From a bacterium (GTDB lineage: Bacteria > Ratteibacteria > UBA8468 > B48-G9 > JAFGKM01), in the NCBI GenBank assembly GCA_023230585.1, contig JALNXB010000001.1, positions 69,847 to 133,846 of the forward strand: a DNA stretch of 64,000 nt, given 5' to 3'. Positions 91 through 17,487 of the stretch are shown piece after piece. The translations under genes and the position numbers were made by a program. How positions within the stretch are numbered: the first letter of the stretch is position 1; every line of letters starts with the position of its first letter. Below the pieces are notes generated by a model. That model was not told where the DNA came from. It searched no databases and was given only the letters and a program-made list of their open reading frames with translations.

Positions 91-1218
91 GTGGTGGGCA
101 AGGATAAAGCCATCAAGGATGAAGGTGTAAGAAAAAAATATTTGACAAGAAAATCAAATAGTTATAACCTTAAGATTGTGAAACAAATCACAATGATAAT
201 GGAAACCTTATATATTACCAAGCAAGACTGGGAAGGTTTTATTAAGGGCAAAACTGTCGATAAAACAATCTTTGCTCCTTTTGATGATAGGGGGTCCTTA
301 TTTTACAAGAGAGTTTTTGCTACTAATTGTCAGGATATTGTTTATAATAGAGCAAGACCTATTGAGCCCTTAAAACTATTTTTGTTACCTTTCAAAGAAA
401 GAGTTTTTCCTTCAATTGACGCCATATCCGAAATTATCGTTATGGGGGCTACCTCATGCGATATAAAGGGGTTACAAATTCTTGATAAAGTTTTTTTAGA
501 AGAAGATTATAAAGACCCTAACTACTCATACCGCCGTGATAATACTCTAATAATAAGTTTTGATTGCCTATCTCCGTACTCGTCCTGTTTTTGTGAACTT
601 GTAGGTGTACATCCCTACCCCGAGAATGGTTTTGATTTAAATCTTTCTCTTTGTCAGGATGGGTTTTTAATAGATGTAACTACAGATAAAGGGGCTGCGT
701 TTATTGGGAATGACCAGAAGTTTTTTCAATCTTCAGGTGAACAGGTAGGAATGAGGAAAGAGCAGAGAAAAAGAGTAACAGAACAACTTAAAGAAAGCAA
801 TAGAAGGTTCGATTTTTCAAAATTAGATAACCTGAAAGGTGCATATCAGAGCGAAATCTGGCAAACTCCTAAAGATGTTGAGAATTGTGTTCAATGCGGT
901 AGTTGTACCAACAATTGTCCAACCTGTGTATCTTTTTTGCTTGAAGATGTAGGTACCTCAGAAAATATAAAAAAAAATAAGGTTTGGGATAGTTGTCTTT
1001 TCCCCGGATACGCTAAAATGGCTGCAGGTGCTTCGCCTCGACCGTCTTTGTATGATAGGTATGCTAATAGATTGTTATGTAAATACTGGTATATGGTTGA
1101 AAATTTTGGGGTTAAGGGGTGCACTGGGTGTGGAAGATGTATATCAGGATGTATAGGGAAGATAGATAAAAGGTCGGTCATAACTGAGGTGTTAAGAAAC
1201 GAAAAGGTAAATATTTGA
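91..1218 (+). CDS. FeS subunit with two CxxCxxCxxxCP-type motifs, HydB/AsrA-like (sulfhydrogenase beta / anaerobic sulfite reductase A family); start codon uncertain (GTG 91 or ATG 196)
   Basis: Motifs CVQCGSCTNNCPTC and GCTGCGRCISGC in translation; positioned immediately upstream of FAD/NAD subunit as in hydBG/asrAB pairs. Confidence 0.5.
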   Translation: MVGKDKAIKDEGVRKKYLTRKSNSYNLKIVKQITMIMETLYITKQDWEGFIKGKTVDKTIFAPFDDRGSLFYKRVFATNCQDIVYNRARPIEPLKLFLLPFKERVFPSIDAISEIIVMGATSCDIKGLQILDKVFLEEDYKDPNYSYRRDNTLIISFDCLSPYSSCFCELVGVHPYPENGFDLNLSLCQDGFLIDVTTDKGAAFIGNDQKFFQSSGEQVGMRKEQRKRVTEQLKESNRRFDFSKLDNLKGAYQSEIWQTPKDVENCVQCGSCTNNCPTCVSFLLEDVGTSENIKKNKVWDSCLFPGYAKMAAGASPRPSLYDRYANRLLCKYWYMVENFGVKGCTGCGRCISGCIGKIDKRSVITEVLRNEKVNI

Positions 1219-2048
1219 TGAAAAAAAATATTTATGCGCCAATAAAATGTAATGTTATTGAAGTAGTGACTGAATCTCCTAACATTGTGACAGTTAAACT
1301 AAAACCCTTAGAAGAGTTTTCTTTTCTTGCAGGACAGTTTGCCTCTTTAACTGTTTTTGGAATTGGTGAAGCACCTTTTACTCCATCATCTTCTCCTTAT
1401 GATAAAGACAAAATAGAGTTTACTGTAATGAAAACAGGAAGAGTGACAGACGCAATACATAATCTGCAAGTAGGAGATATTGTCGGAGTGAGAGGTCCTT
1501 ATGGTAAACCTTACCCATTAGATTTTTACCAAGGTAAAGAGATTCTTCTTGTTGGAGGCGGTGTTGGGTTGGCACCTTTAAGGGCTCTCTTTTTTGCGTT
1601 AATGGAGACGGTTGACAACTATAAGAAGATTATCTTTTGTTGTGGTGCGAAGACTCCAGAGGACTATATTTATAAAGATAAAATTCTGGACGAGTGGCAC
1701 AATTTTTGTGATAGGTTTCCTTTAAGTTTCAGGATAACGGTTGATAGGAAATGCCCTGGTTGGAAGTATGGTGAAGGGGTGGTAACAGAAACTCTTGATG
1801 GGTTGGCTCTTGATATTTCTAACTCTGTTGCGGTTGTTTGTGGACCTCCTATAATGATGAAATTTACTACATTGAAACTTCTTGAGATAGGTTATACAGA
1901 TGCTCAGATATATCTTTCTATGGAAAGGAAGATGTATTGTGGGGTAGGTCAATGTCGACATTGCCTTATTGGTGACCTTTTTGTGTGTAAAGATGGACCG
2001 GTGTTTACTTATGCTCAGTTGAAAGATAAACCTAATATATGGGTCTAA
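1215..2048 (+). CDS. FAD/NAD(P)-binding oxidoreductase subunit with C-terminal 2Fe-2S motif (HydG/AsrB/PyrK-like electron transfer subunit)
   Basis: Gly-rich LLVGGGVGLAPL nucleotide-binding motif; C-terminal CGVGQCRHCLIGDLFVC cluster motif typical of PyrK/HydG family; 4-bp overlap with upstream gene. Confidence 0.65.
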   Translation: MMKKNIYAPIKCNVIEVVTESPNIVTVKLKPLEEFSFLAGQFASLTVFGIGEAPFTPSSSPYDKDKIEFTVMKTGRVTDAIHNLQVGDIVGVRGPYGKPYPLDFYQGKEILLVGGGVGLAPLRALFFALMETVDNYKKIIFCCGAKTPEDYIYKDKILDEWHNFCDRFPLSFRITVDRKCPGWKYGEGVVTETLDGLALDISNSVAVVCGPPIMMKFTTLKLLEIGYTDAQIYLSMERKMYCGVGQCRHCLIGDLFVCKDGPVFTYAQLKDKPNIWV

Positions 2049-2542
2049 AAAGAATGAAAAAACTTTATATAGATTATGATATATTGTTGCAAACAGAAGA
2101 GGTTTTCCAATGTAGTTATAAGTTACACCCTTATAACGATGGAATAACTACTTTAAGAGAAGAGATTGCTTTTATGTTTGCGTGCCGTAGATGTGAAGAT
2201 TATCCTTGTGTTAACTCTTGCCCTAACGGTGCCTTAAAAAGAGAGGCAGGACTAATTAAACGTTCAAATTTAGTATGTATAGCTTGTAAGACCTGTTCAA
2301 TTGCTTGTCCTTTTGGGACTATATTGGTAGAATTACTCCCTTACCTTGTGGGTAGATGTGATGAGTGTATTGGGCGCCTTAAAAAAGACGAGGTGCCTTT
2401 ATGTGTTGCCAGATGTGAAAGTGGAGCGATACAGTATCTAAAAGAAGATGATATTACCGACAAAACTAACCTTTATAAGATGGGAGAAAAGATTATTGTA
2501 AGAGTATTTAACTGGCTTAATTTTTATGGAATTAAAAAATGA
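2039..2542 (+). CDS. Cys-rich 4Fe-4S ferredoxin-type (polyferredoxin-like) protein
   Basis: Multiple CxxCxxCxxxCP-like motifs (CRRCEDYPCVNSCP, CIACKTCSIACP, CDECIG...CVARC). Confidence 0.55.
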   Translation: MGLKRMKKLYIDYDILLQTEEVFQCSYKLHPYNDGITTLREEIAFMFACRRCEDYPCVNSCPNGALKREAGLIKRSNLVCIACKTCSIACPFGTILVELLPYLVGRCDECIGRLKKDEVPLCVARCESGAIQYLKEDDITDKTNLYKMGEKIIVRVFNWLNFYGIKK

Positions 2543-3468
2543 GTATAGGTAACTATCTAATATTTATCATTAGAAGTTTCTTTCTTTTAAACGTATTAGG
2601 TCTGGTGGCTATGTGGATAGATAGAAAATTGACAGCGCGCCTACAATTTCGTGTGGGACCGCCGTGGTATCAGAATTTTGTAGATTTTTTTAAACTGGTA
2701 GGTAAGGAAGTACTAATTCCAGAGAAATCTAACGTTTTTATGTTTGTTTTTGCTCCACTGCTTGCTCTTCTCTCGGCATCAATGGCTGGAACGATAATGT
2801 TGTTTGCTATGAAGTTAGGCCTATCTTTTGCTGGGGATATAATTCTTATTGTATACCTGTTGACCATTCCTTCTTTCGCTATAATATTGGGCGGTAGCGC
2901 TTCTGGGAATGTTCTTGCAGCTGTTGGTATTAGTAGAGAAATAAAACTTCTTTTGGGGTATGAGTTACCTTTTGTTTGCGCTATTATTATCCCTGCCTTA
3001 AAGAGCGGCTCAACAACCTCTTTTTTTACAATTATCCAACACCAACAGACAAACGGTATGTTTATAGGTTCTATCTCTGGTATTATAGGGTTTGTTATAG
3101 GGTTACTTTCTTTACAAGGTAAACTTGGGCTTGTGCCGTTCGACCTTGCAGAAGCTGAAGGTGAACTTGCAGCTGGTGCTTTTATGGAATATTCTGGGAT
3201 TCTGTACGGTTTTTTTAAATTAACAAAAGCAGTTCTGTTTATATCAGGACCATTGTTTCTTGTATCTCTATATTTTGGAGGGGTATCTACCTCCTCGGTG
3301 GGTGGCACAATAACTGGTATTTTAAAGTACCTTTTAGTATTAGTTTTAATAACCCTTATTAGAAACACTAACCCAAGGTTAAGGATAGACCAAGCTTTAA
3401 AATTGTTTTGGGGTTGGCTAACTCTTTTAGGGTTGGTAGGTATACTTTTAGCATTTATGGGGAGATAA
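2539..3468 (+). CDS. Membrane subunit, NuoH/HyfC/MbhM-like, of group 4 hydrogenase
   Basis: Polytopic membrane protein ~309 aa, position in Nuo-like module before small subunit; overlapping start with upstream gene. Confidence 0.6.
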   Translation: MSIGNYLIFIIRSFFLLNVLGLVAMWIDRKLTARLQFRVGPPWYQNFVDFFKLVGKEVLIPEKSNVFMFVFAPLLALLSASMAGTIMLFAMKLGLSFAGDIILIVYLLTIPSFAIILGGSASGNVLAAVGISREIKLLLGYELPFVCAIIIPALKSGSTTSFFTIIQHQQTNGMFIGSISGIIGFVIGLLSLQGKLGLVPFDLAEAEGELAAGAFMEYSGILYGFFKLTKAVLFISGPLFLVSLYFGGVSTSSVGGTITGILKYLLVLVLITLIRNTNPRLRIDQALKLFWGWLTLLGLVGILLAFMGR

Positions 3469-3884
3469 TGAACTTAAAGTTAAAAGCATTAAAAAAATCT
3501 TTGTGGGTCTACCATTTATCGGGAGGTTCTTGTAATAACTGTGATATAGAGATACTTGATTGTCTTACACCAAGGTTTGATATTGAACGTTTTGGTATGG
3601 TGCTTGTTGGTAGCCCAAGACACGCTGATGCTCTTTTATGTACAGGTATTGTAAATAAAAAATGTGTAGAAAGGATAAAAGAGGTATACCATCAGACAGC
3701 TAAACCGTGTGTTGTTGTAGCGATAGGCGCCTGTGCTTGTTCAGGCGGAATTTTTAGGGACGGGTACCAGATGGGAGGACCGTTAAATCAAATTATACCG
3801 GTAGATATTTATATACCTGGCTGTCCACCTAAACCTGAAGCAATGATTGCTGGTATAGTTAAACTTCTGGAGAAACTCAAATGA
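3468..3884 (+). CDS. [NiFe]-hydrogenase small subunit, NuoB/MbhJ-like (start chosen at taATG overlap with upstream stop; ORF track starts at 3408)
   Basis: GGSCNNCDIE, GACACSGG and GCPPKPE motifs (NuoB/20 kDa family Fe-S ligands). Confidence 0.7.
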   Translation: MNLKLKALKKSLWVYHLSGGSCNNCDIEILDCLTPRFDIERFGMVLVGSPRHADALLCTGIVNKKCVERIKEVYHQTAKPCVVVAIGACACSGGIFRDGYQMGGPLNQIIPVDIYIPGCPPKPEAMIAGIVKLLEKLK

Positions 3885-4327
3885 AGTTATTGAAAACCTT
3901 AAAAGCAACACTTAAAAATTATATAAAAGATGTAAAAGTTCATAATGAACGAAGAATATATATAACAATTGATAGTAAATTTCTTAAAGAGTGCGTTAAT
4001 ATTCTTTTTCGCCAACTTAATGGAAGGTATATTATTATTTCCGGAGTTGACAATTTTGATTCTTTTGAATTGATATACCATTTTGGGTTTGACTTGTTTG
4101 GTGCAATAGTATCGTTACGGGTTTTTCTTGAACGTAACAATCCTGAAGTTGTATCTCTTGTAGACACTATTCCGGGCGTTTTTTATATTGAAAGAGAGAT
4201 TTGGGAACTTTTAGGGATAAATTTTGTAGGTCACCCTAACCTTAAACATTTCTTGTTAAGAGACGATTGGCCTAAAGAAGATTATCCTTTACGTAAAAAC
4301 AGTAACAATATAACTGGTGACAAATAA
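3881..4327 (+). CDS. NuoC/30 kDa-like subunit (MbhK-like)
   Basis: Size and position between small and large hydrogenase subunits; overlapping start/stop. Confidence 0.5.
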   Translation: MKLLKTLKATLKNYIKDVKVHNERRIYITIDSKFLKECVNILFRQLNGRYIIISGVDNFDSFELIYHFGFDLFGAIVSLRVFLERNNPEVVSLVDTIPGVFYIEREIWELLGINFVGHPNLKHFLLRDDWPKEDYPLRKNSNNITGDK

Positions 4328-4330
4328 ATA

Positions 4331-5530
4331 ATGAAAAACAAAAAGAAGAAAGTTGTTGTGCCAATAGGTCCTTACCACCCTCTACTTGAAGAACCAGAGT
4401 TTTTTGCTCTATATTGTGAAGGAGAAAAGGTTGTTGATGTGGAATGGCAAGCAGGTTACAACCATAGAGCAATAGAAAAGTTGTCTGAAGGTAAACATTG
4501 GGACCAGGTAACGTTTCTTGTGGAAAGGATATGTGGGATATGTTCTACCTCGCACCCTTTTGCGTATTGTAACGCTGTGGAAGACCTGTTGGGTATATCT
4601 ATACCAGACAAAGCCAAATATATTAGGTGCGTAATTGGAGAGATGGAGAGAATACATAGCCACCTTTTATGGGTAGGGCTTGCTGGTCATTTTCTTGGGT
4701 ATAACACAATTTTTATGTGGGCGTGGAAATATAGAGAATCTATTCTTGAGATGTTTGAGATAATAACAGGTAATAGAAACCATTATGCTATGTTTAAGAT
4801 AGGTGGTGTTAGACGAAATATTGAAGATGAAGATATCCCTACTTTAAGAAAAGTGTTGACCAACCTTGCCGGGAAACTTAAGATGCTTACTAATGCGGTT
4901 CTTGATGACCCTGTTTTAGGTGTTCGTTTGAAAGGTGTGGGTGTTTTAACAGAAGAGCATATTAAAGATTTTGGTGCGATAGGTCCTGTTGCAAGGGCAA
5001 GCGGTGTTTCAGTAGATGTAAGAAAAGATGACCCGTACTCTGCATACCCTTTTTTAGATTGGAAGGTTATAAAGACACAAAACGGGGATGTTTTTGATAA
5101 AGCTGTAGTAAGATTGCTTGAATGTATGGAGTCGGTACAAATTATTGAGCAAGCATTAAATTTTATTGAAGGCAACGATGGAGAAATACTAAATGAGGTT
5201 AGAGAAATACCTCCAGGCGAGGGGATAGGTCACCACGAAGCTCCTCGTGGCGAGTGTTTCCATTATGTAAAAAGCGATGGAGCCAACAGCCCAGTTAGAC
5301 ATAAAATACGGGCTCCCAGTTCTAACAATATACCTACCTTTAAAGCAAGTTGTATAGGACAAATGATATCAGATGTTGCAATTATCCTTGCCGCTGTTGA
5401 CCCGTGTTACTGTTGCACAGAAAGGGTTGCAGTATACGATATTGAAAAGAAGAATAAGAAGAGGTACGATTTTTCTGATTTGGTTGAACTCTCAAGAAAA
5501 AGAACTGAAGAATTGAGAAGAGAGGTATAA
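4331..5530 (+). CDS. Group 4 [NiFe]-hydrogenase large subunit (NuoD/EchE/MbhL-like)
   Basis: N-terminal RICGICSTSH (RxCGxCxxxH, L1) and C-terminal DPCYCCTER (DPCxxCxxR, L2) Ni-Fe ligand motifs both present. Confidence 0.8.
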   Translation: MKNKKKKVVVPIGPYHPLLEEPEFFALYCEGEKVVDVEWQAGYNHRAIEKLSEGKHWDQVTFLVERICGICSTSHPFAYCNAVEDLLGISIPDKAKYIRCVIGEMERIHSHLLWVGLAGHFLGYNTIFMWAWKYRESILEMFEIITGNRNHYAMFKIGGVRRNIEDEDIPTLRKVLTNLAGKLKMLTNAVLDDPVLGVRLKGVGVLTEEHIKDFGAIGPVARASGVSVDVRKDDPYSAYPFLDWKVIKTQNGDVFDKAVVRLLECMESVQIIEQALNFIEGNDGEILNEVREIPPGEGIGHHEAPRGECFHYVKSDGANSPVRHKIRAPSSNNIPTFKASCIGQMISDVAIILAAVDPCYCCTERVAVYDIEKKNKKRYDFSDLVELSRKRTEELRREV

Positions 5531-5537
5531 AAAAGGA

Positions 5538-6155
5538 ATGAGAAAACCTAAACTAAGGGAACTTAAAGAAGCTATATCAAGTATTTTTTCAAAACCTTTT
5601 ACAACAGAATTCCCTTTTAAAACTCATACTCCAGCAGAAAGGTTTAGAGGAAAACCTGAATATAATCAAGATACCTGTGTAGGTTGTGGGGCTTGTTTTC
5701 AAGTCTGTCCTTCTAACGCTATTGAGATGATAGATACAGTTGTTGAAGGTAAAGGCAAACGTGTACTTGTTCAACATCCTAAGGATTGCCTGTTTTGTGG
5801 AGAATGCGAAAGAAACTGTATCACTGAAACAGGTATACAGCTTACTAAAGTTTTTGATGTATCTTACTTTGACGAGAAAAAAGTTCAAAGTAGTATAGAG
5901 CATAACCTTGTTGTTTGTAAGCATTGTAAAGAGGTTATAGGGGCAGAAAAACATATCCTCTGGACCTTAAGGAAACTTGGTAACCTTGCATATTCTCAAC
6001 CTGTGATGATATCTGGATTGATGTCAGATTTGGAGCTAAAGGTTGAGGTAGAAGAGACCGTGGTAGCCCCTATACAGAGAACAGATATCCTTAAGGTTGT
6101 ATGCCCTAAATGTAGGCGTCTTGCTTTTATAACAGATGAGAAGAGGGAGAGGTAG
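5538..6155 (+). CDS. 2x[4Fe-4S] ferredoxin subunit (NuoI/MbhN-like) with extra C-terminal Cys pairs
   Basis: CVGCGACFQVCP and CLFCGECERNC motifs; further CKHC...CPKC pairs C-terminal. Confidence 0.6.
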   Translation: MRKPKLRELKEAISSIFSKPFTTEFPFKTHTPAERFRGKPEYNQDTCVGCGACFQVCPSNAIEMIDTVVEGKGKRVLVQHPKDCLFCGECERNCITETGIQLTKVFDVSYFDEKKVQSSIEHNLVVCKHCKEVIGAEKHILWTLRKLGNLAYSQPVMISGLMSDLELKVEVEETVVAPIQRTDILKVVCPKCRRLAFITDEKRER

Positions 6156-6161
6156 TCATAA

Positions 6162-7583
6162 ATGTATATTGACCAAAAAATGTTGATGTCAGTTTTGCTG
6201 TTGCCTTTTGCTGGCGCACTTATAGTACTGCTGTTACCAGCAAGGAGATCCATTATAACAGGTTTTTTCGTTCTTTTAACACAATTAGTTTGCTCTTTTC
6301 CTATTATTAACACTATGGTTGGGTGTGGTCCTGTACAAGTACAAGAGCGTTTTAGGGAAAACACAGTTGAGGTGAGTATTCTTAATGTCTTTTTTAGATG
6401 TACTTCATTAAGTTACATCTTTGCTTTGACTTCTATTTTTGTGGGAGTAGTTATATACCTCTTTTCTCTGGGTTATTTTAAGGAAGAGAAGGTTGAAGAA
6501 CAAAAGAAATTTTCTTTCTGGGGGTTGCTCTTTATAGGGAGTATGATGGGGGTGATATTTTCTGATAACCTTATCTCTCTATACCTTTTTTGGGAACTGG
6601 CAGGGTTATGTTCTTGGAAACTTATAGGTTTTTACAGAAAAGACGAGCACCTCTTAAAAGCAGATAAGGCCTTTCTTATTACTAGCGCTGGTGCCGGGTT
6701 GATGATGTTAAGTTTTGCGTGTATATATGCGCAGACGGGAACCTTAAGTTTATCTCAGTTATCTTGTCAGCAAGTATCTCCTTTGGTGTTTACTCTTTTT
6801 TTTATAGGGGTATTAACAAAGTCAGCCAGTTTCCCTTTTCATACGTGGTTACCCGACGCATCTGTTGCCCCTACTCCCGTAACGGCCTTTCTTCATGCTG
6901 CTGTCCTTGTGAAGATAGGTGTCTATGGGCTTTTTAAGATTTTTGTTAGAACACTTTTGGTTTCAGGGTGGACATTATGGGCGGGGTGGCTGGCTCTCTT
7001 TAGTAGTATTGTTGCTGGTATTATTGCTTTAAGAGAAGAAGATATAAAGAAGATACTTGCTTTTTCTACTGTTAGCCAACTTGGTTTAATGATAGCCGGG
7101 CTGATGGTATTTAATATGACGGCAGCTGAGGGTGTGTTAATATTTTATTTTGCTCACGCTCTGGGTAAAGGAGGGCTTTTTCTTTGTGCCGGTGTTATTG
7201 AGAGGGTATTTGGTACAAAAAATATTAAAGAGATGGGTGGTTTAATAAAAGAGATGCCAGCACTAACTTTTGCTTTTTTTATAGGGATGCTCTCTGTAAT
7301 AGGGATACCACCTTTACCGGGTTTTTTTGGTAAATTAGAGATTATAATAGGAATGGTTCAAAGTAAACAGATTATTTATGCTCTCTCTGCTATTCTTTCA
7401 TCGGTTTTAACTCTTTTATATATGTTCAGGTTTTTCTTTTATGTGTTTATGGGGGAAAAAAGAGAGGTTTTGAGAGAAAATAGAGTTGGGTTTAAACCTA
7501 TGCTTACTTCTGTCCTGTTACTTGCAATAGTTTCTCTTGTTTTGGTTATAATTATGACAGGGCACTATTTTAAATTTCTTTAG
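6162..7583 (+). CDS. MrpD/NuoM/N-like antiporter-type membrane subunit (MbhH-like)
   Basis: ~473 aa polytopic protein with HTWLPDA motif characteristic of NuoL/M/N-MrpA/D family. Confidence 0.65.
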   Translation: MYIDQKMLMSVLLLPFAGALIVLLLPARRSIITGFFVLLTQLVCSFPIINTMVGCGPVQVQERFRENTVEVSILNVFFRCTSLSYIFALTSIFVGVVIYLFSLGYFKEEKVEEQKKFSFWGLLFIGSMMGVIFSDNLISLYLFWELAGLCSWKLIGFYRKDEHLLKADKAFLITSAGAGLMMLSFACIYAQTGTLSLSQLSCQQVSPLVFTLFFIGVLTKSASFPFHTWLPDASVAPTPVTAFLHAAVLVKIGVYGLFKIFVRTLLVSGWTLWAGWLALFSSIVAGIIALREEDIKKILAFSTVSQLGLMIAGLMVFNMTAAEGVLIFYFAHALGKGGLFLCAGVIERVFGTKNIKEMGGLIKEMPALTFAFFIGMLSVIGIPPLPGFFGKLEIIIGMVQSKQIIYALSAILSSVLTLLYMFRFFFYVFMGEKREVLRENRVGFKPMLTSVLLLAIVSLVLVIIMTGHYFKFL

Positions 7584-7658
7584 TTTTTATGTAATTATGT
7601 TATATCAAACGGATATGATTAGTTGTAGAGAATTATATATACCAATGGAGGGAAAAAG

Positions 7659-9494
7659 TTGAATCTTAATGTGTGGTTTCTACCTGTAATAATAAGTTTT
7701 GGAATATCTTTACTTCATCTTGTTTCTCCCAGGATGGGCAGAAAGTATAGAAGATGGGTCTCGCTATTTGGAGGGTTCGCTATTCTTGTGAGTTGCTTAT
7801 ACTCTCTTTATATTAACAATGATTATCTTTACTCTTGGCAAAACTTTGGTCTTCTTTTTGGTATACTTATCTCAGCTATCTCTCTTTCAAGTATCTCTTT
7901 TTCTCAGTGGTACAATCCTGACGACGGTTACGCCTATGACTCCCTGCTCTTTCTATTTATTGGTGCAATGAACGGGGTGGTCTTATCTCACTCTTTTATT
8001 GCCCTATTCGTATATTGGGAAATAATGACCATTGCAAGTTTCTTTCTTGTTCTTTTTAATGATACCATCGAAGCAAGGCAGGCATCAGTTAAATACATAA
8101 TTATGACAGGAGCGGGGAGTATGATGCTTCTTTTTGGAATTATTGGTATCTTAGTTGGCACTACCATTATCGGTGACAATATTGTATGGGAACATATCTT
8201 TTTTGCTTCTATACTTATTGGCACAGGCATTAAAGCTGGCATTATTCCTTTACATACTTGGCTTCCTGATGCCCATCCTGCAGCTCCAACACCTGTCTCC
8301 TCTATGTTATCAGGGATAATGATTAAGACAGGTGTTTATGCTTTTATAAAACTATATTTTGGAATATTTAACCCTTCGTGGTCATTATCTTGGGATGTAA
8401 TCCTAACTATAATAGGTGTTTTGACTCTTGTAGGCGGGGTGTTCCTTGCTCTTATCCAGAGTGATATAAAAAGACTTCTTGCTTACCATAGTATCAGCCA
8501 GATAGGGTATATCTTTCTTGGTATATCTTGCGGTACAAGTATAGGTCTTGTTGGTGCTATCTACCACACAATTAACCACGCCATATTCAAAAGTTTACTC
8601 TTTCTTGGCGCAGGAGTCTTGATAAAAACAACAGGTTCTCGATACCTACAAGATTACGGAGGGCTTGCTAAAAAATTACCCTTCACTTTTGCTGTTATGA
8701 CTGTTGCTTCAATGTCTATATCAGGGATACCTCCGTTTAATGGTTTTATTTCAAAATGGATAATCTATCAAGCGCTCCTAACTAAAGGAAACAGTTTGTC
8801 TATTTTTGCTATGGTTGCTGCTCTATTGGGTAGCGTTTTAACACTTGCTTCTTTTATAAAAGTTTTGAACGATTCGTTTATGGGGGTAAGAGAGAAAGAA
8901 CTAAAAGGAGAAAGATTGGAAAGTTCTCCCTTTATGAATATACCTATGTTTATTTTAGCACTGGGCTGTTTTATTTTTGGAGTTTTTCCAGGGTTGGTAT
9001 TAGAGAGAATTGTTTTTCCCTCTATTGGAGAGTATGTGAACCTTAACATTTCGCATATAAAATTGGTTGGTATGTATGGGTGGTTGGTCATAGTTTTATT
9101 TATATTTGTACTTGTGTTTACCAAGTTTTTTAAAAAAGTAAGGATAGTGAAAAACTTTGTAGGTGGAGAACTTTTATCTTCTCAAGATACATCTTTTGAT
9201 GGTACCCATTTTTATGGCACAATAAAAGATATTCCTTTAATTAAGATATTCTATTTGGCAGAAGAGAGGGGTGCCCTTGATATTTACCAGAGAGCTCTAC
9301 AATCTCTTCCCAAAACAGGTAGATTCTTTAAAGTTATAGGGGTTAGAATGGTAGACAACGTGTACCATAGAGGAAACCATATCTTAAACAGGTGGGTATC
9401 TAAACTTAAAGTGATACAGAACGGGCTGCTTGCAAAGTATATTATATGGATTTTTGCAGGGATTATACTATTAATGGAGGTTATAAGAAGATGA
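7659..9494 (+). CDS. MrpA/NuoL-like antiporter subunit
   Basis: 611 aa polytopic protein with LHTWLPDAHPAAPTPVS motif. Confidence 0.65.
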   Translation: MNLNVWFLPVIISFGISLLHLVSPRMGRKYRRWVSLFGGFAILVSCLYSLYINNDYLYSWQNFGLLFGILISAISLSSISFSQWYNPDDGYAYDSLLFLFIGAMNGVVLSHSFIALFVYWEIMTIASFFLVLFNDTIEARQASVKYIIMTGAGSMMLLFGIIGILVGTTIIGDNIVWEHIFFASILIGTGIKAGIIPLHTWLPDAHPAAPTPVSSMLSGIMIKTGVYAFIKLYFGIFNPSWSLSWDVILTIIGVLTLVGGVFLALIQSDIKRLLAYHSISQIGYIFLGISCGTSIGLVGAIYHTINHAIFKSLLFLGAGVLIKTTGSRYLQDYGGLAKKLPFTFAVMTVASMSISGIPPFNGFISKWIIYQALLTKGNSLSIFAMVAALLGSVLTLASFIKVLNDSFMGVREKELKGERLESSPFMNIPMFILALGCFIFGVFPGLVLERIVFPSIGEYVNLNISHIKLVGMYGWLVIVLFIFVLVFTKFFKKVRIVKNFVGGELLSSQDTSFDGTHFYGTIKDIPLIKIFYLAEERGALDIYQRALQSLPKTGRFFKVIGVRMVDNVYHRGNHILNRWVSKLKVIQNGLLAKYIIWIFAGIILLMEVIRR

Positions 9495-10021
9495 TACTAA
9501 ATATACCTCTCTTATCTTCTCTGTTGGTTCTTATGGCTGTTGGTTCTGTTATTGCAATATCAGCAAAAAGTCTTACCTCTTCTGTTGTGGCAATGGGTAC
9601 AGCAGGCCTTATTCTGAGTATCCTCTTTCTTATTCTTGGAGCGCCTGATATTGCTATAGTACAGGTCTTTGTGGAGATTGTAGCGTTAATCGTTCTATTA
9701 TCAATTATTTCACGAGAATCTTCTGCGGATATGTCTTCGTCGGGTATGTACGCAGGGTTTGTGCTACTTATTTTTAGTATATTTCTTTTTACTTTTATGC
9801 TTAACTCTAAACTGTTTTTAAGACCTTTTGGGGAACCGCTTATGACTATGGGCTCGGGGTACCTAAAATCTTCGGTAGAAACATTAAAAGGAGCGGATGT
9901 TGTCAACTCTATAGTACTTGATTTAAGAGGTTATGATACACTTGGTGAAGCTACAATTATTTTTACTGCTATATTGGGGGTATTGGCGATGTTGCGGCTA
10001 AAAGGGAGGATTGATGGATAA
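9446..10021 (+). CDS. MrpA C-terminal-domain-like / MbhD-E-like small membrane subunit
   Basis: Hydrophobic 191 aa; follows MrpA-like gene; ends ...LKGRIDG immediately before repeat insertion. Confidence 0.4.
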   Translation: MDFCRDYTINGGYKKMILNIPLLSSLLVLMAVGSVIAISAKSLTSSVVAMGTAGLILSILFLILGAPDIAIVQVFVEIVALIVLLSIISRESSADMSSSGMYAGFVLLIFSIFLFTFMLNSKLFLRPFGEPLMTMGSGYLKSSVETLKGADVVNSIVLDLRGYDTLGEATIIFTAILGVLAMLRLKGRIDG

Positions 10022-10026
10022 AGGGA
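9999..10026. repeat. 28-bp direct repeat (left copy) 'taaaagggaggattgatggataaaggga'
   Basis: Perfect identity with 10785-10812 by eye. Confidence 0.8.
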
Positions 10027-10784
10027 CAAAAAAGTATGTGGTGTCTACTCACTCTGGAACTACGGTGCATACACCTTCTACACAACAATCGGGCACTCTG
10101 AGAACTTACCCTTCTGCATAAAAGGCATCTCCGAAGGGTTTAACAGGCTCAGTGTAGTAGAACAAAAGGCTTGAACCTTTTGTTAACAGCCCGATTCTTG
10201 CTTGAGTTGTAGTAGCACCTCGTAATTCGTTCATAGACACATACTTTTTTAACGAAAAGAAAAACAAAGGCAATGATAAAAGCATAAAAGAAAAGCGTAT
10301 GGGGTGTTTACTCACTCTGGTACTACGGTGCATACACCTTTCCTTTTTTGCCTTCTACCCTTAGGGGATGTTTGGGGTAGTAAGTCCCCAAGAGTTTGCA
10401 AAGAGGTTAATGGGATGAGGTTTATCCGCCGAAGCTTGCATTTTAGCGCAGGTGGAGGGGTAGTTAGCAACTTAACCAAAAACGAAAGACGTAATGATAA
10501 AAGATGAGATTGCCCCCTGCATGTCATTCCGGACTTGATCCGGAATCTCGTTTTTACCGCTTCTGTTAAGTGGGTTAGGTTAGAGATCCTGAAACAAGTT
10601 CAGGATAACAAAATGTGGGAGTAGGGGAACAAAAGGCTTGAACCTTTTGTTAACAGCCCCCCATTCCGCCTTTTGTAGTTAGTCTTGCGAGTTTTACCCG
10701 CCGAAGCCTTGGCGTAGGAGGGGCTTCGTAACGTGGCAATCTCGCCGAAGGCGGAAAAGGAATGGGAAGGAATAATAGTATGGT
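10027..10784. mobile_element. 758-bp composite block of dispersed repeat modules inserted between two operon genes (non-coding, MITE-like)
   Basis: Contains duplicated modules 'ggtgtttactcactctggtactacggtgcatacacc' (x2), hairpin 'caaaaggcttgaaccttttgttaacagc' (x2), 'gtcattccggacttgatccggaatctcgtttt', 'ccccattccgccttttgtagtt...', 'gcggaaaaggaatg'; all recur elsewhere in window; flanked by 28-bp direct repeats. Confidence 0.6.
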
Positions 10785-10812
10785 TAAAAGGGAGGATTGA
10801 TGGATAAAGGGA
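10785..10812. repeat. 28-bp direct repeat (right copy)
   Basis: Identical to 9999-10026. Confidence 0.8.
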
Positions 10813-11267
10813 TGAGCGAGATAGTTAAGGGTATTTCAAAAATAGTGTTCCCATTTATTATACTTTTTGGCATTGCTCTTGTTTTATATGGGCATATTAA
10901 TCCAGGGGGCGGATTTTCAGGTGGGGCTGTTTTGGCTGGAGGGTTTGTACTGCTTCTGCTTGCTTTTGGGAAAGATTATGTGTTTAAAGTTTTCCCTCCA
11001 AAAATTGCTCGGCTGATTGATAGTTTAGGGGCTTTAGGGTTTTTGTGTATTGCTGTTTTAGGGTTTACAGGAGGCCACTTCTTTTATAATTTCCTCAATA
11101 AAGGCCGGCTCTTCCATTTATGGAGTGGTGGTACGATGGTATTTGCTAATATTGCTATAGGTATGAAAATTTGTTCAGCTCTTTTTGTTGGCATTTCTGT
11201 TCTGTCTATGGCTCGCCTTGAAAAGAAAGAGAATGGGCCTATATATAGGCAGAGCGGGGAGGAATAA
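10800..11267 (+). CDS. MrpB-like antiporter subunit
   Basis: PGGGFSGGAVLAGG motif typical of MrpB/MnhB; ORF track starts at TTG 10797, ATG at 10800. Confidence 0.55.
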   Translation: MDKGMSEIVKGISKIVFPFIILFGIALVLYGHINPGGGFSGGAVLAGGFVLLLLAFGKDYVFKVFPPKIARLIDSLGALGFLCIAVLGFTGGHFFYNFLNKGRLFHLWSGGTMVFANIAIGMKICSALFVGISVLSMARLEKKENGPIYRQSGEE

Positions 11268-11617
11268 TGGTTATATATCTTCTGGTTGCTCTTATTTTCT
11301 TTATAGGGTTATATGGTATTGTTGCTAAAAAGAATATCATAAAAATTATTATAGGGGCTAACATTGTGGGTTATGCAGTTAATCTGTTGTTTATAGTGAT
11401 GGGGTATCAATGGGGCGGGATGGCTCCGGTGTTAACTGAAAAGACCAAACCAGATGAATTCTATAAGTTAGCCGTTGACCCTTTACCTCAGGCACTTGTT
11501 TTAACATCAATAGTTATTGACCTTGCTTTCCTTGCTTTTTTGTCTGCACTTGCTATCCGTCTTTATGAAAAGTATGAAACCTTTGATATAGAAAAGATGC
11601 GGAGGTTAAAAGGATGA
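11267..11617 (+). CDS. MrpC/NuoK-like subunit
   Basis: 116 aa, three predicted TM helices, taATG overlap, position in Mrp order. Confidence 0.55.
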   Translation: MVIYLLVALIFFIGLYGIVAKKNIIKIIIGANIVGYAVNLLFIVMGYQWGGMAPVLTEKTKPDEFYKLAVDPLPQALVLTSIVIDLAFLAFLSALAIRLYEKYETFDIEKMRRLKG

Positions 11618-13119
11618 ACCTTATTGTTATGCCGGTGGTTATTTATTTAGGTTCTGCTTTTGTTATACCGTTGTTATTTAGGAAGAACGAGGAGTTGGCA
11701 GGGAAATTTACCTGTATATGCACGTTTCTTGCGTTTGTTATATCTATCCTTATAGGAATCAATGTTTTTTCTCAAGGTAGATTTATATCTTTTGCAGGCG
11801 GTTGGGAAAATCCCGTAGGTATAGCTTTAATGGTTGACCCTTTATCTGCGTTATTTCTTATAGTATGCAATTTTATAACATTCTTCATACTACTATATTC
11901 AGATACCTATATGAAAAAATATACAGGTAGAATATATTTTAACTCTCTCTTTATGTTAATGCTTGCAGGTATGAACGGTGTACTTATAAGTATGGATATA
12001 TGGAACATTTTTGTCTTTTTTGAAATAGCTTCAATATCGTCTTTTATACTTGTTGCTTTTGGTTTGAAGGCAGAAGAGTTGGAAGCATCATTAAAATATA
12101 CTATTATGGGGTTCTTGGCATCAACTATGATACTTTTTGGCATGGCTATGATATACGGGCTTACTGGGACCTTAAACCTGCCTGATATTGCATTTGCTTT
12201 ATCTAAATTACCTCCTTCTCATTTATGGTTCACTGTTGCTCTGCTTTTGTCTGGGTATATATTAAAGATGGCTCTTGTACCTTTCCATACTTGGCTACCA
12301 GACGCTCATTCTATGGCACCTGCACCAGTGTCGGCTATATTGTCGAGCCTTTTTATAAAAATTATAGGGTTTTACCTTGTGATACGTGTTTCTTTGAACC
12401 TTTTTGGGGATATATACCAGATAAAGACAGCGCTTATTGTGTTGGGAGTGGTGTCTATGATACTTGGCGGTATTATGGCTTATGGACAACAAAATATCAA
12501 ACGGTTGTTTGCCTATTCTACTATCAGTCAGATAGGGTATTGTGCGATTGGAATAGGTATTGGAGGTTACTTGGGATACCTTGGGGCTATTATGCATTTT
12601 ATTGGGCACGCTTTTTCTAAATCACTACTATTTTTAGATATAGGCGCAATTGAATATATGACAGGCACCACTGATTCTAATGATTTGGAAGGAATCAATG
12701 AGCAGATGCCTTTTACAACCTTATTTTCAAATATGGGAATGTTCGGAATATCAGGTATTCCTCCTTTAGGTAATTTTTGGAGTAAACTGATTATTATACT
12801 TGCAGCTGTAAAAGCAGGATACTTTGGGGTTGCTCTTTTATCAGTTTTTGTTGCTGTCTTAACTCTCGGGTATTTTCTTAAACTATTAAGGAACGTCTAC
12901 TACAACAAACCTAAAACCAAAGAAGAAAAAAAAGAAGCTCCTTTGGGGTTGTTGGTGCCAATGGCAACCTTATCGTTTATGGTGCTATTTACAGGGGTTT
13001 TTCTGATACCTTCTATAAGAAAAACTGTTTTAGATAAAACCGTTGGAGTGATGGAAAACTTTTCGTATAAAAGTTTACATATTTCGGAAACCGATGAAAG
13101 TATATTGTTAGAAGAGTAA
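11614..13119 (+). CDS. MrpD/NuoN-like antiporter subunit
   Basis: 501 aa with FHTWLPDAHSMAPAPVS motif. Confidence 0.7.
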   Translation: MNLIVMPVVIYLGSAFVIPLLFRKNEELAGKFTCICTFLAFVISILIGINVFSQGRFISFAGGWENPVGIALMVDPLSALFLIVCNFITFFILLYSDTYMKKYTGRIYFNSLFMLMLAGMNGVLISMDIWNIFVFFEIASISSFILVAFGLKAEELEASLKYTIMGFLASTMILFGMAMIYGLTGTLNLPDIAFALSKLPPSHLWFTVALLLSGYILKMALVPFHTWLPDAHSMAPAPVSAILSSLFIKIIGFYLVIRVSLNLFGDIYQIKTALIVLGVVSMILGGIMAYGQQNIKRLFAYSTISQIGYCAIGIGIGGYLGYLGAIMHFIGHAFSKSLLFLDIGAIEYMTGTTDSNDLEGINEQMPFTTLFSNMGMFGISGIPPLGNFWSKLIIILAAVKAGYFGVALLSVFVAVLTLGYFLKLLRNVYYNKPKTKEEKKEAPLGLLVPMATLSFMVLFTGVFLIPSIRKTVLDKTVGVMENFSYKSLHISETDESILLEE

Positions 13120-13131
13120 AAGGAAAAAGAA

Positions 13132-13617
13132 ATGAGATACTTTTTTATGTTTATAGTTTTGTATATTATCTGGCTAATGGTAACTTGCAATATGGAGGTT
13201 GCCAATTTTTATGCTGGGGCAATCGTTGCTTTAATTGTTACAGCGTTATTTGGGAAAGAATTTCCTTACCACCCTAAACATACTTTTCAAATAAAGAGAT
13301 ACTTTGCATTTATTAAATTTTTAGGTGTCTTTTTTGTGCAGGTTGTACATGCTAACTTCATAATGGCTTATAGGGTTTTAAGTCCAAACTTACCAATTAA
13401 ACCGGGGATAGTAGAGATACCTCTCTATCTTAAATCCCCTCTGGGTAGAGTAATTCTTGCTAACGCTATCACTCTTGCGCCGGGCACTTTTACTATGGAC
13501 ATCACAAGTGATACACTTATATTACACTGGATATACGTACAGACAGAAGACCCACATAAAGCAGAAGAAATTATATGCGGTAGGTTACAAAGAATTCTTA
13601 AGGAGGTATTTGAATGA
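13132..13617 (+). CDS. MrpE-like subunit
   Basis: 161 aa, N-terminal hydrophobic; position in MrpA-G order. Confidence 0.45.
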   Translation: MRYFFMFIVLYIIWLMVTCNMEVANFYAGAIVALIVTALFGKEFPYHPKHTFQIKRYFAFIKFLGVFFVQVVHANFIMAYRVLSPNLPIKPGIVEIPLYLKSPLGRVILANAITLAPGTFTMDITSDTLILHWIYVQTEDPHKAEEIICGRLQRILKEVFE

Positions 13618-13868
13618 TTGCCTTATTAGTTTTTTTAACAGTGTGTGTTGCTTTGTGTGTCTACAGAATTTTTGTTGGACCTACTTCTGCAGACAGGATG
13701 GTAGGGATAGATATTCTTGGTATAATAGTTGTGATATTTTGTGTTCTATTGGCGTTATACACAGGTTTTGATTATTATATGAATATAGGTATCGCTTGGT
13801 CAATTATTGGTTTTGTTAGTACAATCACTTTTGCAAAGTTTCTTGAAGGGAGGCATTTAGATGAGTGA
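13614..13868 (+). CDS. MrpF-like subunit
   Basis: 84 aa hydrophobic, overlapping start/stop with neighbours. Confidence 0.45.
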   Translation: MIALLVFLTVCVALCVYRIFVGPTSADRMVGIDILGIIVVIFCVLLALYTGFDYYMNIGIAWSIIGFVSTITFAKFLEGRHLDE

Positions 13869-14181
13869 AGTTATTGGGCAAATATTTCTTGTTGTAGGGT
13901 TATGTTTTACATTTTTTGGATGTGTAGGGTTGGTAAGAATGCCTGACGTATACTGCAGGTTGCAGGCGGCAACAAAATGTGTTACTCTGGGAACAGGTAG
14001 TGTTTTGATAGGGGCTCTTATAATAACAGGGTTTACTGGTATAGGAATAAAATCTTTGGTATGTTTTATATTTCTTTTTTTAAACTCACCAACGGCTGCA
14101 CACGCTCTTGCTAAATCAGCTAAAGCTGCTGGAGTGCCTGTCTGGAAAAAAACTGAACCTGATAAAAACAAAAATCTCTAA
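13861..14181 (+). CDS. MrpG-like subunit
   Basis: 106 aa, N-terminal TM helices; end of Mrp module. Confidence 0.5.
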   Translation: MSEVIGQIFLVVGLCFTFFGCVGLVRMPDVYCRLQAATKCVTLGTGSVLIGALIITGFTGIGIKSLVCFIFLFLNSPTAAHALAKSAKAAGVPVWKKTEPDKNKNL

Positions 14182-14224
14182 CAACCTTTCTTAAAGGTCT
14201 TTAGCAACATTGTAAAAAAATAAA

Positions 14225-14494
14225 ATGCATGAACTTGTATTGATTTCAAATCTTTTAAAAATTCTTAACAAAATAAAAGAAGACGATAGGAATATATATT
14301 CTTTTCTGGCAATACATATTACTGTAAACCCATATAGTTGTATAGATGAGGAAAATCTTAATTTTATGTTTCGCTCTGTAGTCGGAAAAGAAGAGATATA
14401 TAAAGATGCTAAAATATGTGTAACAAGAGGGGCTAACCCTGCTGATAGAGAGTTTATACTTGATAATGTGGAGGTAGAGGTTTATGAAGAATAA
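14225..14494 (+). CDS. hypA: HypA-like hydrogenase nickel-insertion protein, N-terminal Ni-binding domain only (no Zn-finger CxxC...CxxC)
   Basis: Starts MHEL (conserved MHE Ni site) and resembles HypA N-domain; only two Cys in 89 aa; overlaps hypB start. Confidence 0.45.
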   Translation: MHELVLISNLLKILNKIKEDDRNIYSFLAIHITVNPYSCIDEENLNFMFRSVVGKEEIYKDAKICVTRGANPADREFILDNVEVEVYEE

Positions 14495-15602
14495 GGTTAA
14501 AACAATTAAGGTAGGAGCAAGCATATTGAAAGAAAATGATAAAATATCTGAAGAGAATAGGTTATTATTTGAAAAAAACAATGTGTGCTGTATAAATGTT
14601 ATGGGGTCTCCCGGTTCGGGTAAAACATCTCTACTTGAGAAGACAATACCTAAACTTAAATTAAAAAATATAAAACCTGGGGTTATAGAGGGAGATATAG
14701 AAGGAACGTTAGATGGTGAACGGCTTTTAAAATATGGTATACCTGTGGTGCAGATAAACACAGGGGGAGCGTGTCATCTGGATGCCAATATGGTAAAGAA
14801 AGGCCTTGAGAACCTCAATTTGAATGAGATAGATATCCTATTTATTGAAAATGTTGGCAATCTTGTATGCCCTGCTGCGTTTACTCTCGGCGAAAGTTAC
14901 AACGTTATTATTTCAAGTTGCCCAGAAGGAGAGGAAAAACCTTTAAAATATCCTTTGATGTTTAATATTTCTAATATATGCCTCCTTAATAAAATGGACT
15001 TGTCTGAACATTTGGATTTTAATACCAAACAATTTAAAGAGTACCTATTTAAGGTTGCGCCAGATACTAAACTTATACCGCTATCTTCAAAAACAGGAGA
15101 TGGTTTTGAAGAATGGTTAGATTTTCTTTACTTGTCTGCCCCTGAAAATAAAAAAGAACGTATAGTGGTGGTAGGTTTGGGGGATAGGATGAAAGGGGAC
15201 GATGCAGCAGGATGCGAAATAGCTGAACAACTTCATAAAGAGGATATCTCAGAGAATGTAAAAATAATTAATGCTGAAAACGCTATAGAAAACTATATTG
15301 GCGTGATAAAAGGATTTAAGCCAGATAGAATATATTTTGTTGACGCTGTTGACTTTAGTGGAACTCCAGGAGAAGTAAGACTTATGGAGGCAGGTTCTCT
15401 GGTAAGCAACACCTCTTCAACACATACTTTAGCTTTGCCGTTGATAATAGAAAATATTAAAGCAGAAACTTCTGCAAAATGTACTATCGTTGGAGTTCAA
15501 CCTAAAAAGATATTGTTTTCACAGAAGATTTCAAATGAGGTTAGGGAAGGTATTATGAATGCAGTTAAAATGTTGAGGGAAATATTATGGAAAAAGAGAT
15601 AG
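14484..15602 (+). CDS. hypB: Fusion of HypB nickel-GTPase and hydrogenase maturation endopeptidase (HycI/HybD-like)
   Basis: P-loop GSPGSGKTSLLEKT, CHLDANMV, ENVGNLVCPAAF (HypB) followed in same frame by VVVGLGDRMKGDDAAGCEIAEQL (HycI/HybD N-terminal signature). Confidence 0.75.
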   Translation: MKNKVKTIKVGASILKENDKISEENRLLFEKNNVCCINVMGSPGSGKTSLLEKTIPKLKLKNIKPGVIEGDIEGTLDGERLLKYGIPVVQINTGGACHLDANMVKKGLENLNLNEIDILFIENVGNLVCPAAFTLGESYNVIISSCPEGEEKPLKYPLMFNISNICLLNKMDLSEHLDFNTKQFKEYLFKVAPDTKLIPLSSKTGDGFEEWLDFLYLSAPENKKERIVVVGLGDRMKGDDAAGCEIAEQLHKEDISENVKIINAENAIENYIGVIKGFKPDRIYFVDAVDFSGTPGEVRLMEAGSLVSNTSSTHTLALPLIIENIKAETSAKCTIVGVQPKKILFSQKISNEVREGIMNAVKMLREILWKKR

Positions 15603-15952
15603 TTATGAAGTATGCAAATAAAGAAATCAAAATTTTAATGAAAGATAGCCGTTTAGCAAAAGCAATATGTGAGAAATTACCGTTTAAGGTGAATGTAAAT
15701 GTTTGGGGTAGAGAAATCTATTTTGAGATACCTGTAAAGTCCAGTATAACAGACTCTGTAATAGAACTTGAAGAAGGAGATGTGGCTTACTGGCCAGATG
15801 GAAGGTGTCTATGCTTTTTTTTCGGACCCACCCCAGCAAGCACAGGAACAAAACCAAAAGCTGCCGGTTATGTTGAGGTGGTTGGAAGGGTTACTTCTGA
15901 TTTGAAAGAACTTGAAAAGGTGAAATCAGGAGAAGAGGTGGTAATTGAATGA
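15587..15952 (+). CDS. Hypothetical protein, possibly cyclophilin-like (TM1367-type) fold
   Basis: Motif AYWPDGRCLCFFFGPTP recalled from cyclophilin-like DUF family; weak. Confidence 0.3.
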   Translation: MEKEIVMKYANKEIKILMKDSRLAKAICEKLPFKVNVNVWGREIYFEIPVKSSITDSVIELEEGDVAYWPDGRCLCFFFGPTPASTGTKPKAAGYVEVVGRVTSDLKELEKVKSGEEVVIE

Positions 15953-17467: not shown

Positions 17468-17487
17468 AAATGTACCTCTTTTGTGAA

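Follow-up and report, generated by a model that had tools for sequence, protein, structure and literature searches.

Mrp-linked group 4 [NiFe]-hydrogenases with an additional oxidoreductase module have been described from metagenome-assembled genomes (MAGs). Matheus Carnevali et al. found in Saganbacteria an Mrp-linked hydrogenase of group 4 that they termed 'enigmatic', with its nearest kin in Omnitrophica and Zixibacteria, the cluster of which contains asrA-, asrB- and cooF-like genes 'that might compose an oxidoreductase module' (PMC6349859). Meheust et al. described a 'Mbh-Mrp-oxidoreductase type' and left the function of the oxidoreductase open (bioRxiv 10.1101/765248). Williams et al. 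placed the Mrp-linked enzymes of Omnitrophota and Cloacimonadota in group 4g and assumed ferredoxin as the donor (PMC8542988; also PMC9324843); HydDB gives group 4g an 'undetermined role' (PMC5037454). The cluster type is already on record in these metagenome papers and is known there from sequence. Here, we analysed a 64,000-nucleotide stretch of a Ratteibacteria genome (contig JALNXB010000001.1, positions 69,847 to 133,846; hereafter the window), in which positions 91–15602 carry such a cluster. On balance, we take this locus to be an operon for a group 4 [NiFe]-hydrogenase belonging to the membrane-bound hydrogenase (MBH) type, linked to Mrp subunits, with a dedicated electron-input module formed by beta, gamma and HydN-like subunits. 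A limited literature search turned up no earlier account of three features described below (the invariant synteny, the beta/gamma pair as a lineage of its own and the link to the regulator Rex), and the Caldithrix and Melioribacter genome papers and the Nobu 2020 paper make no mention of such an enzyme.

The operon comprises 19 genes, all on one strand, and a 20th gene for a cyclophilin-like protein overlaps its end (15587–15952). Adjacent genes mostly overlap by 1–16 nt or are spaced by 3–12 nt. A first-pass annotation made from the letters of this DNA had given the gene content and order, and both were reproduced by our listing of open reading frames (ORFs) and by Pfam and NCBIfam profile searches. 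It had also described a translationally coupled block of more than 20 genes; the genes are indeed co-directional, but 19 lie within the operon and a 786-nt insert breaks the translational coupling. The genes of the input module and of the hydrogenase core are as follows.

193–1218 (probable extent; ORF 91–1218), plus strand: beta subunit, sulfhydrogenase-beta/AsrA-like, with multiple [4Fe-4S] clusters (Pfam Fer4_22, 3.5e-25)
1215–2048, plus strand: gamma subunit, FAD- and NAD(P)-binding with a C-terminal [2Fe-2S] site (Pfam FAD_binding_6, NAD_binding_1, DHODB_Fe-S_bind)
2039–2542, plus strand: HydN/HycB/CooF-type poly-[4Fe-4S] connector (Pfam Fer4_11)
2539–3468, plus strand: NuoH/MbhM-like membrane subunit (Pfam NADHdh, 1.4e-61)
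3468–3884, plus strand: NuoB/MbhJ-like small subunit with the proximal [4Fe-4S] cluster (Pfam Oxidored_q6, conserved cysteines)
3881–4327, plus strand: NuoC/MbhK-like subunit (Pfam Complex1_30kDa)
4331–5530, plus strand: [NiFe] large subunit, NuoD-like (Pfam NiFeSe_Hases and Complex1_49kDa; motifs RICGICSTSH and DPCYCCTER)
5538–6155, plus strand: NuoI/HycF-like subunit with two [4Fe-4S] clusters and a cysteine-rich C-terminal extension (profile match; PDB 7z0s_F)

The beta gene most likely starts at ATG 193 or 199 and not at 91, as the first 36 codons of the ORF are unconserved across 64 homologues, which are only 333–347 residues long. The best PDB matches of beta and gamma are the corresponding subunits of sulfhydrogenase I (9nez_B, 1.3e-37, and 9nez_C, 1.8e-48); a search for a paper on structure 9NEZ found none. 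The best NCBIfam matches of beta are ShyB, HydB and AsrA, every one of them under its cut-off. Against the group 3b equivalogs, beta scores 154 and 141 bits (cut-offs 690 and 750) and gamma 183 and 171 bits (cut-offs 600 and 650); for AsrA and AsrB the scores are 110 (cut-off 323) and 200 (cut-off 289). The cofactor motifs, the conservation of which was judged on 60–76 homologues per subunit, are in place. Beta has two CxxCxxCxxxC(P) motifs and N-terminal Cys that are conserved in its homologues (n = 64), and the HydN-like protein has two conserved cluster motifs of the CxxCxxCxxxCP type. In gamma the nucleotide-binding GGGxGxxP motif, the flavin-site GEAPFTPSS motif and four C-terminal cysteines are kept across 70 homologues, which makes NAD(P)(H) a reasonable partner for this module and the coupling of the hydrogenase to NAD(P)H plausible. 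Lys146, Lys154 and Tyr153 of gamma are also conserved, at positions that we take to correspond to the 2'-phosphate-binding site of FNR-family enzymes. The window gamma protein had no match in an exact look-up because the gene callers use a different start. The HydN-like protein finds its PDB matches in HycB4/HycB3 of HDCR and in HycB of the formate hydrogenlyase (FHL; 7z0s_B).

The core is that of a genuine group 4 [NiFe]-hydrogenase, as had been proposed: both nickel–iron ligand motifs are present in the large subunit and the four cysteines (Cys68, Cys71, Cys359 and Cys362) are invariant across 14 relatives. The set of group 4 partner subunits (NuoB-, NuoC-, NuoH- and NuoI-like) is complete, with the cysteines kept in 76 and 60 homologues. 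The large subunit is identical to the database protein MCK9265329.1, its closest labelled relatives among the matches listed are from Omnitrophota and Ratteibacteria MAGs, and it carries a 34-residue C-terminal extension beyond DPCYCCTER that is probably removed by a HycI-type protease. The nearest solved relative of the core is the MBH of Pyrococcus furiosus. This is clear for the small subunit (171 bits to MbhJ, 6cfw_J, versus 124 bits to HycG), which most likely starts at ATG 3468, and for the MbhH-like subunit; for the large subunit, MbhL (284 bits) and HycE (281 bits) come out level, and the best NCBIfam match of the NuoI-like subunit is the FHL iron–sulfur subunit. As PDB matches cannot separate group 4d from group 4g, the HydDB label 4g that we infer for the window enzyme follows the label that the literature gives to Mrp-linked enzymes in Omnitrophota and Cloacimonadota.

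Scanning one genome per species, we recovered large-subunit relatives from at least 598 species genomes. We examined the best 80 of these loci, of which 61 were informative, with at least 5.2 kb of upstream sequence. In 61 of 61, the beta, gamma and HydN genes lie directly upstream of the NuoH gene, in the same order and on the same strand. The loci are spread over Bacteroidota, Omnitrophota, Cloacimonadota, Ratteibacteria, Desantisbacteria, Elusimicrobiota, Planctomycetia and MAGs labelled as Clostridia, and the relatives include a cultured carrier, Labilibacter sediminis CG51. Three distant beta homologues (39–40% identity; Ignavibacterium, Latescibacteria and a JGI metagenome contig) sit in the same type of cluster. 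An arrangement that had been presented as unusual is instead the standard layout of a family spread over at least 598 species genomes and already present in metagenome papers. In the relatives, the NuoI-like gene usually follows MnhG and the extra antiporter-like gene is missing; the window layout is common to its closest relatives (L004 and L005). The view that beta and gamma belong with the hydrogenase is borne out by this constant order, by the overlapping genes and by a terminator scan. The scan gave 15 sites against 13.1 expected from shuffled sequence and none at the gamma/HydN junction near 2040, where the gamma stop and the HydN start overlap by 10 nt; a separate transcription unit for beta and gamma, which had been named as a possible objection, is thus unsupported.

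The beta and gamma subunits that accompany group 4 cores form a lineage of their own, apart from those of group 3b. Across phyla, the group-4-linked copies share 34–48% (beta) and 41–62% (gamma) identity, compared with 26–31% and 32–35%, respectively, between group-4-linked and 3b copies of the same contig. One such contig (L085, 3398–19002) carries on one strand rex, a full group 3b sulfhydrogenase operon (beta, gamma, delta, alpha and HycI) and then the group 4 cluster, with a separate beta/gamma pair in each. The invariant synteny, together with the closer relationship of the group-4-linked copies to one another than to 3b, indicates that beta, gamma and HydN form a dedicated and vertically maintained module. 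We set aside a comparison across loci of the identity to the window of the large subunit with that of the other subunits (rho 0.56 for gamma and 0.23 for beta), as most loci fall within a narrow band of 61–66% and the correlations are uninformative. Beta and gamma are standard subunits of this subgroup, an outcome that the first-pass annotation had listed as telling against its proposal if the subgroup were also characterized as ferredoxin-dependent; that second part did not hold, as the subgroup has no such biochemical characterization.

The start of the operon carries two candidate regulatory elements.

176–193, no strand assigned: palindrome TTGTGAAACAAATCACAA resembling a Rex operator, abutting the probable start codon of beta
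142–168, plus strand: possible sigma-70-like promoter (TTGACA at 142–147, 15-nt spacer, TATAAC at 163–168), weak and found by eye

The palindrome differs at one position from the published 18-bp Rex operator consensus TTGTGAANNNNTTCACAA (PMC6391272) and is the sole match in the 64 kb at up to two mismatches. Taken singly the site is not significant, with 45 of 100 shuffled sequences also giving a match. The comparison among relatives is what carries the case: in 38 of 65 related loci the 400 nt upstream of beta hold the motif, at conserved offsets. Its rate in this region is 1.56 per kb versus 0.0074 per kb elsewhere in the same loci (about 210-fold). In 36 related loci, the immediate upstream neighbour of beta is a gene of the Rex family (Pfam Put_DNA-bind_N and CoA_binding), co-directional in some and divergent in others. 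From the enrichment and the conserved offsets, it is very likely that this hydrogenase family is under the control of Rex, responding to NADH/NAD+. The promoter was not reported by an automated scan, which required a spacer of 16–18 nt.

In the most far-reaching form of our proposal, which we hold to be less likely than not, the enzyme would be a complex-I-like machine in which beta and gamma replace the NADH-oxidizing N-module and the Ni-Fe site replaces the quinone site, so that ions flowing inwards would push electrons from NAD(P)H onto protons. In the proposal itself, which we favour, beta and gamma would be attached to the membrane core, and electrons would pass from NAD(P)H to FAD, to the [2Fe-2S] cluster of gamma, to the [4Fe-4S] clusters of beta, and then through the HydN-like and NuoI-like subunits and the NuoB-like subunit, with its proximal cluster, before reaching the Ni-Fe site. 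Turnover at the core formed by the NuoB-, NuoC-, NuoD- and NuoH-like subunits would be coupled to the movement of Na+ or H+ through the Mrp-derived arm with its three antiporter-like subunits. With textbook potentials of −320 mV (NAD(P)+/NAD(P)H) and −414 mV (H+/H2), the formation of H2 from NAD(P)H costs +18 kJ/mol under standard conditions; by our calculation, it yields about −5 kJ/mol at 10 Pa H2. As the reaction is endergonic at standard potentials, H2 evolution from NAD(P)H consumes an ion gradient and cannot build one. The thermodynamics thus leave an NAD(P)H-linked enzyme with two modes: inward ion flow drives H2 evolution, or the enzyme runs as an H2-oxidizing, NAD(P)+-reducing pump. 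The NAD(P)H:H+ oxidoreductase coupled to ion translocation that had been suggested for this locus therefore needs to be changed: an NAD(P)H-linked, ion-coupled enzyme may stand, but NAD(P)H-driven H2 evolution cannot power ion export. The enzyme would make H2 only where the pressure of this gas is low and with help from the ion gradient, and would serve as a sink for excess reductant at the level of NADH; in the reverse direction it would oxidize H2 and conserve energy. Transcription would probably be repressed by Rex and released as NADH/NAD+ rises, and it is this derepression at high NADH that favours H2 evolution over uptake.

A ferredoxin-dependent, ion-exporting MBH is a serious rival, even if we think it rather doubtful. 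Ferredoxin would enter at the HydN-like or NuoI-like subunit, and beta and gamma would form a side branch by which some electrons reach NAD(P)+ (a membrane-bound ferredoxin:NAD(P)+ and H+ oxidoreductase) or which tunes the redox balance. The closeness of the core to the ferredoxin-dependent MBH of P. furiosus fits this model, and published annotations of the family assume it. By textbook potentials, only the oxidation of ferredoxin is exergonic enough for both ion export and H2. The window also encodes a 2-oxoacid:ferredoxin oxidoreductase (58727–62970; gamma, alpha and thiamine pyrophosphate-binding beta genes, the last two separated by a gene for an M55 peptidase), from which it follows that the organism makes reduced ferredoxin. 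We considered Rex control as proof of an NADH donor and rejected it, as Rex also regulates ferredoxin-dependent hydrogenases elsewhere; the Rex link ties the enzyme to redox balance and not to a particular donor. Set against this model, the MBH of P. furiosus works without HydN or beta/gamma, and a three-gene module that is conserved in 61 of 61 loci and has its own lineage is hard to square with an optional side branch. An enzyme engaged mainly in H2 uptake, which as an ion-pumping H2:NAD(P)+ oxidoreductase would store about 18 kJ/mol as an ion gradient, we judge to be unlikely. It would run downhill by the same potentials, P. furiosus sulfhydrogenase I has been proposed to recycle H2 into NADPH, and the conserved Lys146, Lys154 and Tyr153 of gamma would suit it if the presumed 2'-phosphate role is right; a Rex-repressed operon that turns on at high NADH, however, suits a sink for NADH better than a source of NAD(P)H, and the carriers are described as fermenters (PMC8542988).

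Two further explanations concern beta and gamma themselves. That the complex is a membrane-bound sulfhydrogenase, in which beta would hold a reductase site for sulfur or polysulfide (or of the sulfite type) with H2 or NAD(P)H as the source of electrons, finds support in the homology of beta to 'sulfhydrogenase subunit beta (sulfur reductase)' and to AsrA. The same beta scores far under the AsrA and HydB cut-offs, Pfam detects neither an AsrC/siroheme nor a sulfur-handling gene in the cluster, and the large subunit retains all of its Ni-Fe ligands, unlike the sulfane reductase MBS; we hold this explanation to be very improbable. We give even less credence to beta and gamma being a separate soluble enzyme that is merely co-transcribed with the hydrogenase. 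The physical association does rest on gene context, but the beta–gamma–HydN–NuoH order is found in 61 of 61 loci, the genes overlap, and all three of the distant beta homologues sit in the same type of cluster.

Several observations weigh against NAD(P)H-driven H2 evolution as we propose it. The family is known from genes alone, and published annotations presume that ferredoxin is the donor (PMC8542988, PMC9324843). The scores of beta and gamma fall far short of the NCBIfam equivalog cut-offs for HydB/HydG, ShyB/ShyC and AsrA/AsrB. NAD(P)H as used here may mean NADH or NADPH. Neither the 64-kb window nor the 5.7 kb of upstream sequence on a sister contig contains a rex gene, and in Caldicellulosiruptor bescii it is a ferredoxin-dependent membrane-bound NiFe hydrogenase that Rex represses (PMC6391272). 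Finally, the window organism may not express its distal Mrp genes in step with the rest of the operon, because of a repeat insert with a terminator-like hairpin that is described below.

The remainder of the operon encodes the membrane arm, in which a complete Mrp module was detected as had been annotated, with the MrpA-like, MbhD/E and MnhB–G components all recognized by Pfam.

6162–7583, plus strand: extra antiporter-like subunit, HyfD-like (Pfam Proton_antipo_M)
7659–9494, plus strand: MrpA N-terminal/MbhH-like antiporter-like subunit (best PDB match 6cfw_H, 6.3e-64)
9491–10021, plus strand: fused MbhD and MbhE, equivalent to the C-terminal part of MrpA (Pfam MbhD, MbhE)
10797–11267, plus strand: MnhB/MbhF-like subunit (Pfam MnhB)
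11267–11617, plus strand: MnhC/NuoK-like subunit (Pfam Oxidored_q2)
11614–13119, plus strand: MnhD antiporter-like subunit (Pfam Proton_antipo_M)
13132–13617, plus strand: MnhE (Pfam MNHE)
13614–13868, plus strand: MnhF (Pfam MrpF_PhaF)
13861–14181, plus strand: MnhG (Pfam PhaG_MnhG_YufB)

The start of the MbhD/E gene is most likely 9491, after the gene call in a short-read contig of the same organism (L088). The operon has three antiporter-like subunits versus two in most relatives. The extra one is 30–33% identical to the other two, and is thus an old paralogue; among the best 80 loci it is found only in L004, L005, L020, L028 and L075.

The MbhD/E and mnhB genes are separated by the following element.

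10027–10781, no strand assigned: core of a non-coding repeat insert; the unit of 786 nt (10027–10812) equals the offset between the junction copies

The insert is flanked by a direct duplication of 27–31 nt that contains the mnhB ribosome-binding site and first five codons (9996–10026 and 10782–10812). It lies five codons into mnhB, and the gene is nevertheless intact because the duplication restores the ribosome-binding site and start; a 36-residue stub ORF remains at 10011–10121. Scans of the 786 nt gave no credible ORF, no Rfam match and no tRNA. A hairpin followed by a T-run lies at 10526–10556 (−14.7 kcal/mol, z = −2.1). The insert consists of a patchwork of short modules, further copies of which lie at 1–60, 16056–16138, 17490–17808 and 56464–56645, all of them intergenic; the modules include the hairpin ATTCCGGAyTTnAtyCGGAAT followed by CTCGTTTTTA. 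An ORF at 17470–17757 with a repeated RRKRKRN(V/A)PSL sequence is probably an artefact of these modules. In the closest relatives, L004 and L005, the insert is lacking and mbhDE and mnhB overlap by 4 and 1 nt, and two short-read contigs of the same organism (L087 and L088) end exactly at these repeats. The MbhD/E–MnhB junction seems to be a recurrent insertion point. Several Bacteroidales relatives (such as L014, 4234–4605, and L051, 13809–14198) have a gene of about 125 codons at this junction, the product of which was judged by eye to be a four-helix bundle of the '23S rRNA intervening sequence' type, and gaps of 300–600 nt are found there in L023, L061 and L065.

Maturation genes lie at the end of the operon and downstream of it.

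14225–14494, plus strand: short HypA-like protein, 89 residues (Pfam HypA, 27.9 bits, just under the cut-off of 28.9)
14484–15602, plus strand: fusion of HypB (nickel GTPase) and a HycI-type maturation endopeptidase (Pfam cobW and HycI)
15587–15952, plus strand: cyclophilin-like protein (PF04126; Pfam Cyclophil_like, 4e-33), overlapping hypB-hycI by 16 nt
17866–19944, plus strand: HypF maturase (Pfam zf-HYPF, Sua5, HypF_C)

The HypA-like protein has the N-terminal MHE motif and lacks the CxxC zinc motifs; an 87-residue HypA is also found in L002. The HypB–HycI fusion recurs in L004, L005 and L006, and in L006 the cyclophilin-like gene, which has no known link to hydrogenase maturation, again trails the cluster. 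No ORF among those scanned in the 64-kb window matched HypD or HypE. A gene for an AAA_14/DUF4143 ATPase, flanked by repeat modules, lies between the operon and hypF (16175–19944). The end of hypF is overlapped by 23 nt by a minus-strand gene for the catalytic A subunit of a V/A-type ATPase, with no B gene beside it, and this gene is adjoined by a type I restriction-modification system (HsdR, S and M at 23330–30213; region 19922–30213). Further along (regions 35814–37938 and 50418–53483) are tandem AstE/AspA-family paralogues with a 231-nt repeat of 82% identity and a 1021-residue ORF without a Pfam match. On the other side, the sister contig L087 (1–5448), which covers the 5.7 kb upstream of the window start, carries hydF, hydG and hydE, maturases of [FeFe]-hydrogenase, and the organism thus probably also has an [FeFe]-hydrogenase.

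The disposal of NADH as H2 in fermenters is usually ascribed to electron-confurcating [FeFe]-hydrogenases. If our proposal is true, anaerobes in at least 598 species would have, in a [NiFe]-hydrogenase that is linked to NAD(P)H and coupled to an ion gradient, a second way of passing electrons from NADH to H2 that needs no flavin-based confurcation. Metabolic models would then change for abundant sediment, digester and gut-related lineages such as Bacteroidales, Cloacimonadota and Omnitrophota, for which the enzyme is now depicted as an ion pump driven by ferredoxin. The window is one of hundreds of equivalent examples and holds no unique biology beyond the other genomes; the invariant beta/gamma/HydN module, its separate beta/gamma lineage and the Rex control sharpen the question of donor and direction.

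Among known systems, the MBH of P. furiosus (6CFW, HydDB group 4d) shares with the window enzyme the module of NuoB-, NuoC-, NuoD-, NuoH- and NuoI-like subunits, a true Ni-Fe site and an Mrp-derived arm. It differs in its ferredoxin donor, in lacking beta/gamma and HydN and in having one antiporter-like subunit; where group 4d has ferredoxin as the sole donor and no extra oxidoreductase module, beta, gamma and HydN head the operon here. Gene order differs as well, with the Mrp genes first in mbhA–N; their downstream position in the window is shared with the formate and CO clusters of Thermococcus onnurineus. The latter (Fdh2-Mfh2-Mnh2 and CODH-Mch-Mnh3, group 4b) and the FHL of Escherichia coli (7Z0S, group 4a) resemble the window cluster in wiring the donor through a HycB/CooF/HydN-type polyferredoxin, in the HycF-like subunit and in the HycI-processed C-terminal extension, but the donor module here is the FAD/NAD(P)-binding beta/gamma pair and not a formate or CO dehydrogenase, and Pfam found no molybdopterin domain (or CooS domain, as for group 4b) in any ORF between 1 and 20 kb. 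P. furiosus sulfhydrogenases I and II (group 3b, 9NEZ) and Salmonella AsrAB have the same domain make-up and cofactor motifs in beta and gamma, while the partner here is a membrane group 4 core in place of alpha/delta or of AsrC, the siroheme subunit, for which Pfam detected no gene in the cluster. A further likeness is to the MAG clusters of Saganbacteria, Elusimicrobia, Omnitrophota and Cloacimonadota labelled 'Mbh-Mrp-oxidoreductase type' or 'Group 4g, Mrp-linked', in which asrA-, asrB- and cooF-like genes lie beside an Mrp-linked enzyme. The Saganbacteria cluster has an additional molybdopterin oxidoreductase, unlike the window; the window cluster very likely belongs to the same family as these MAG clusters.

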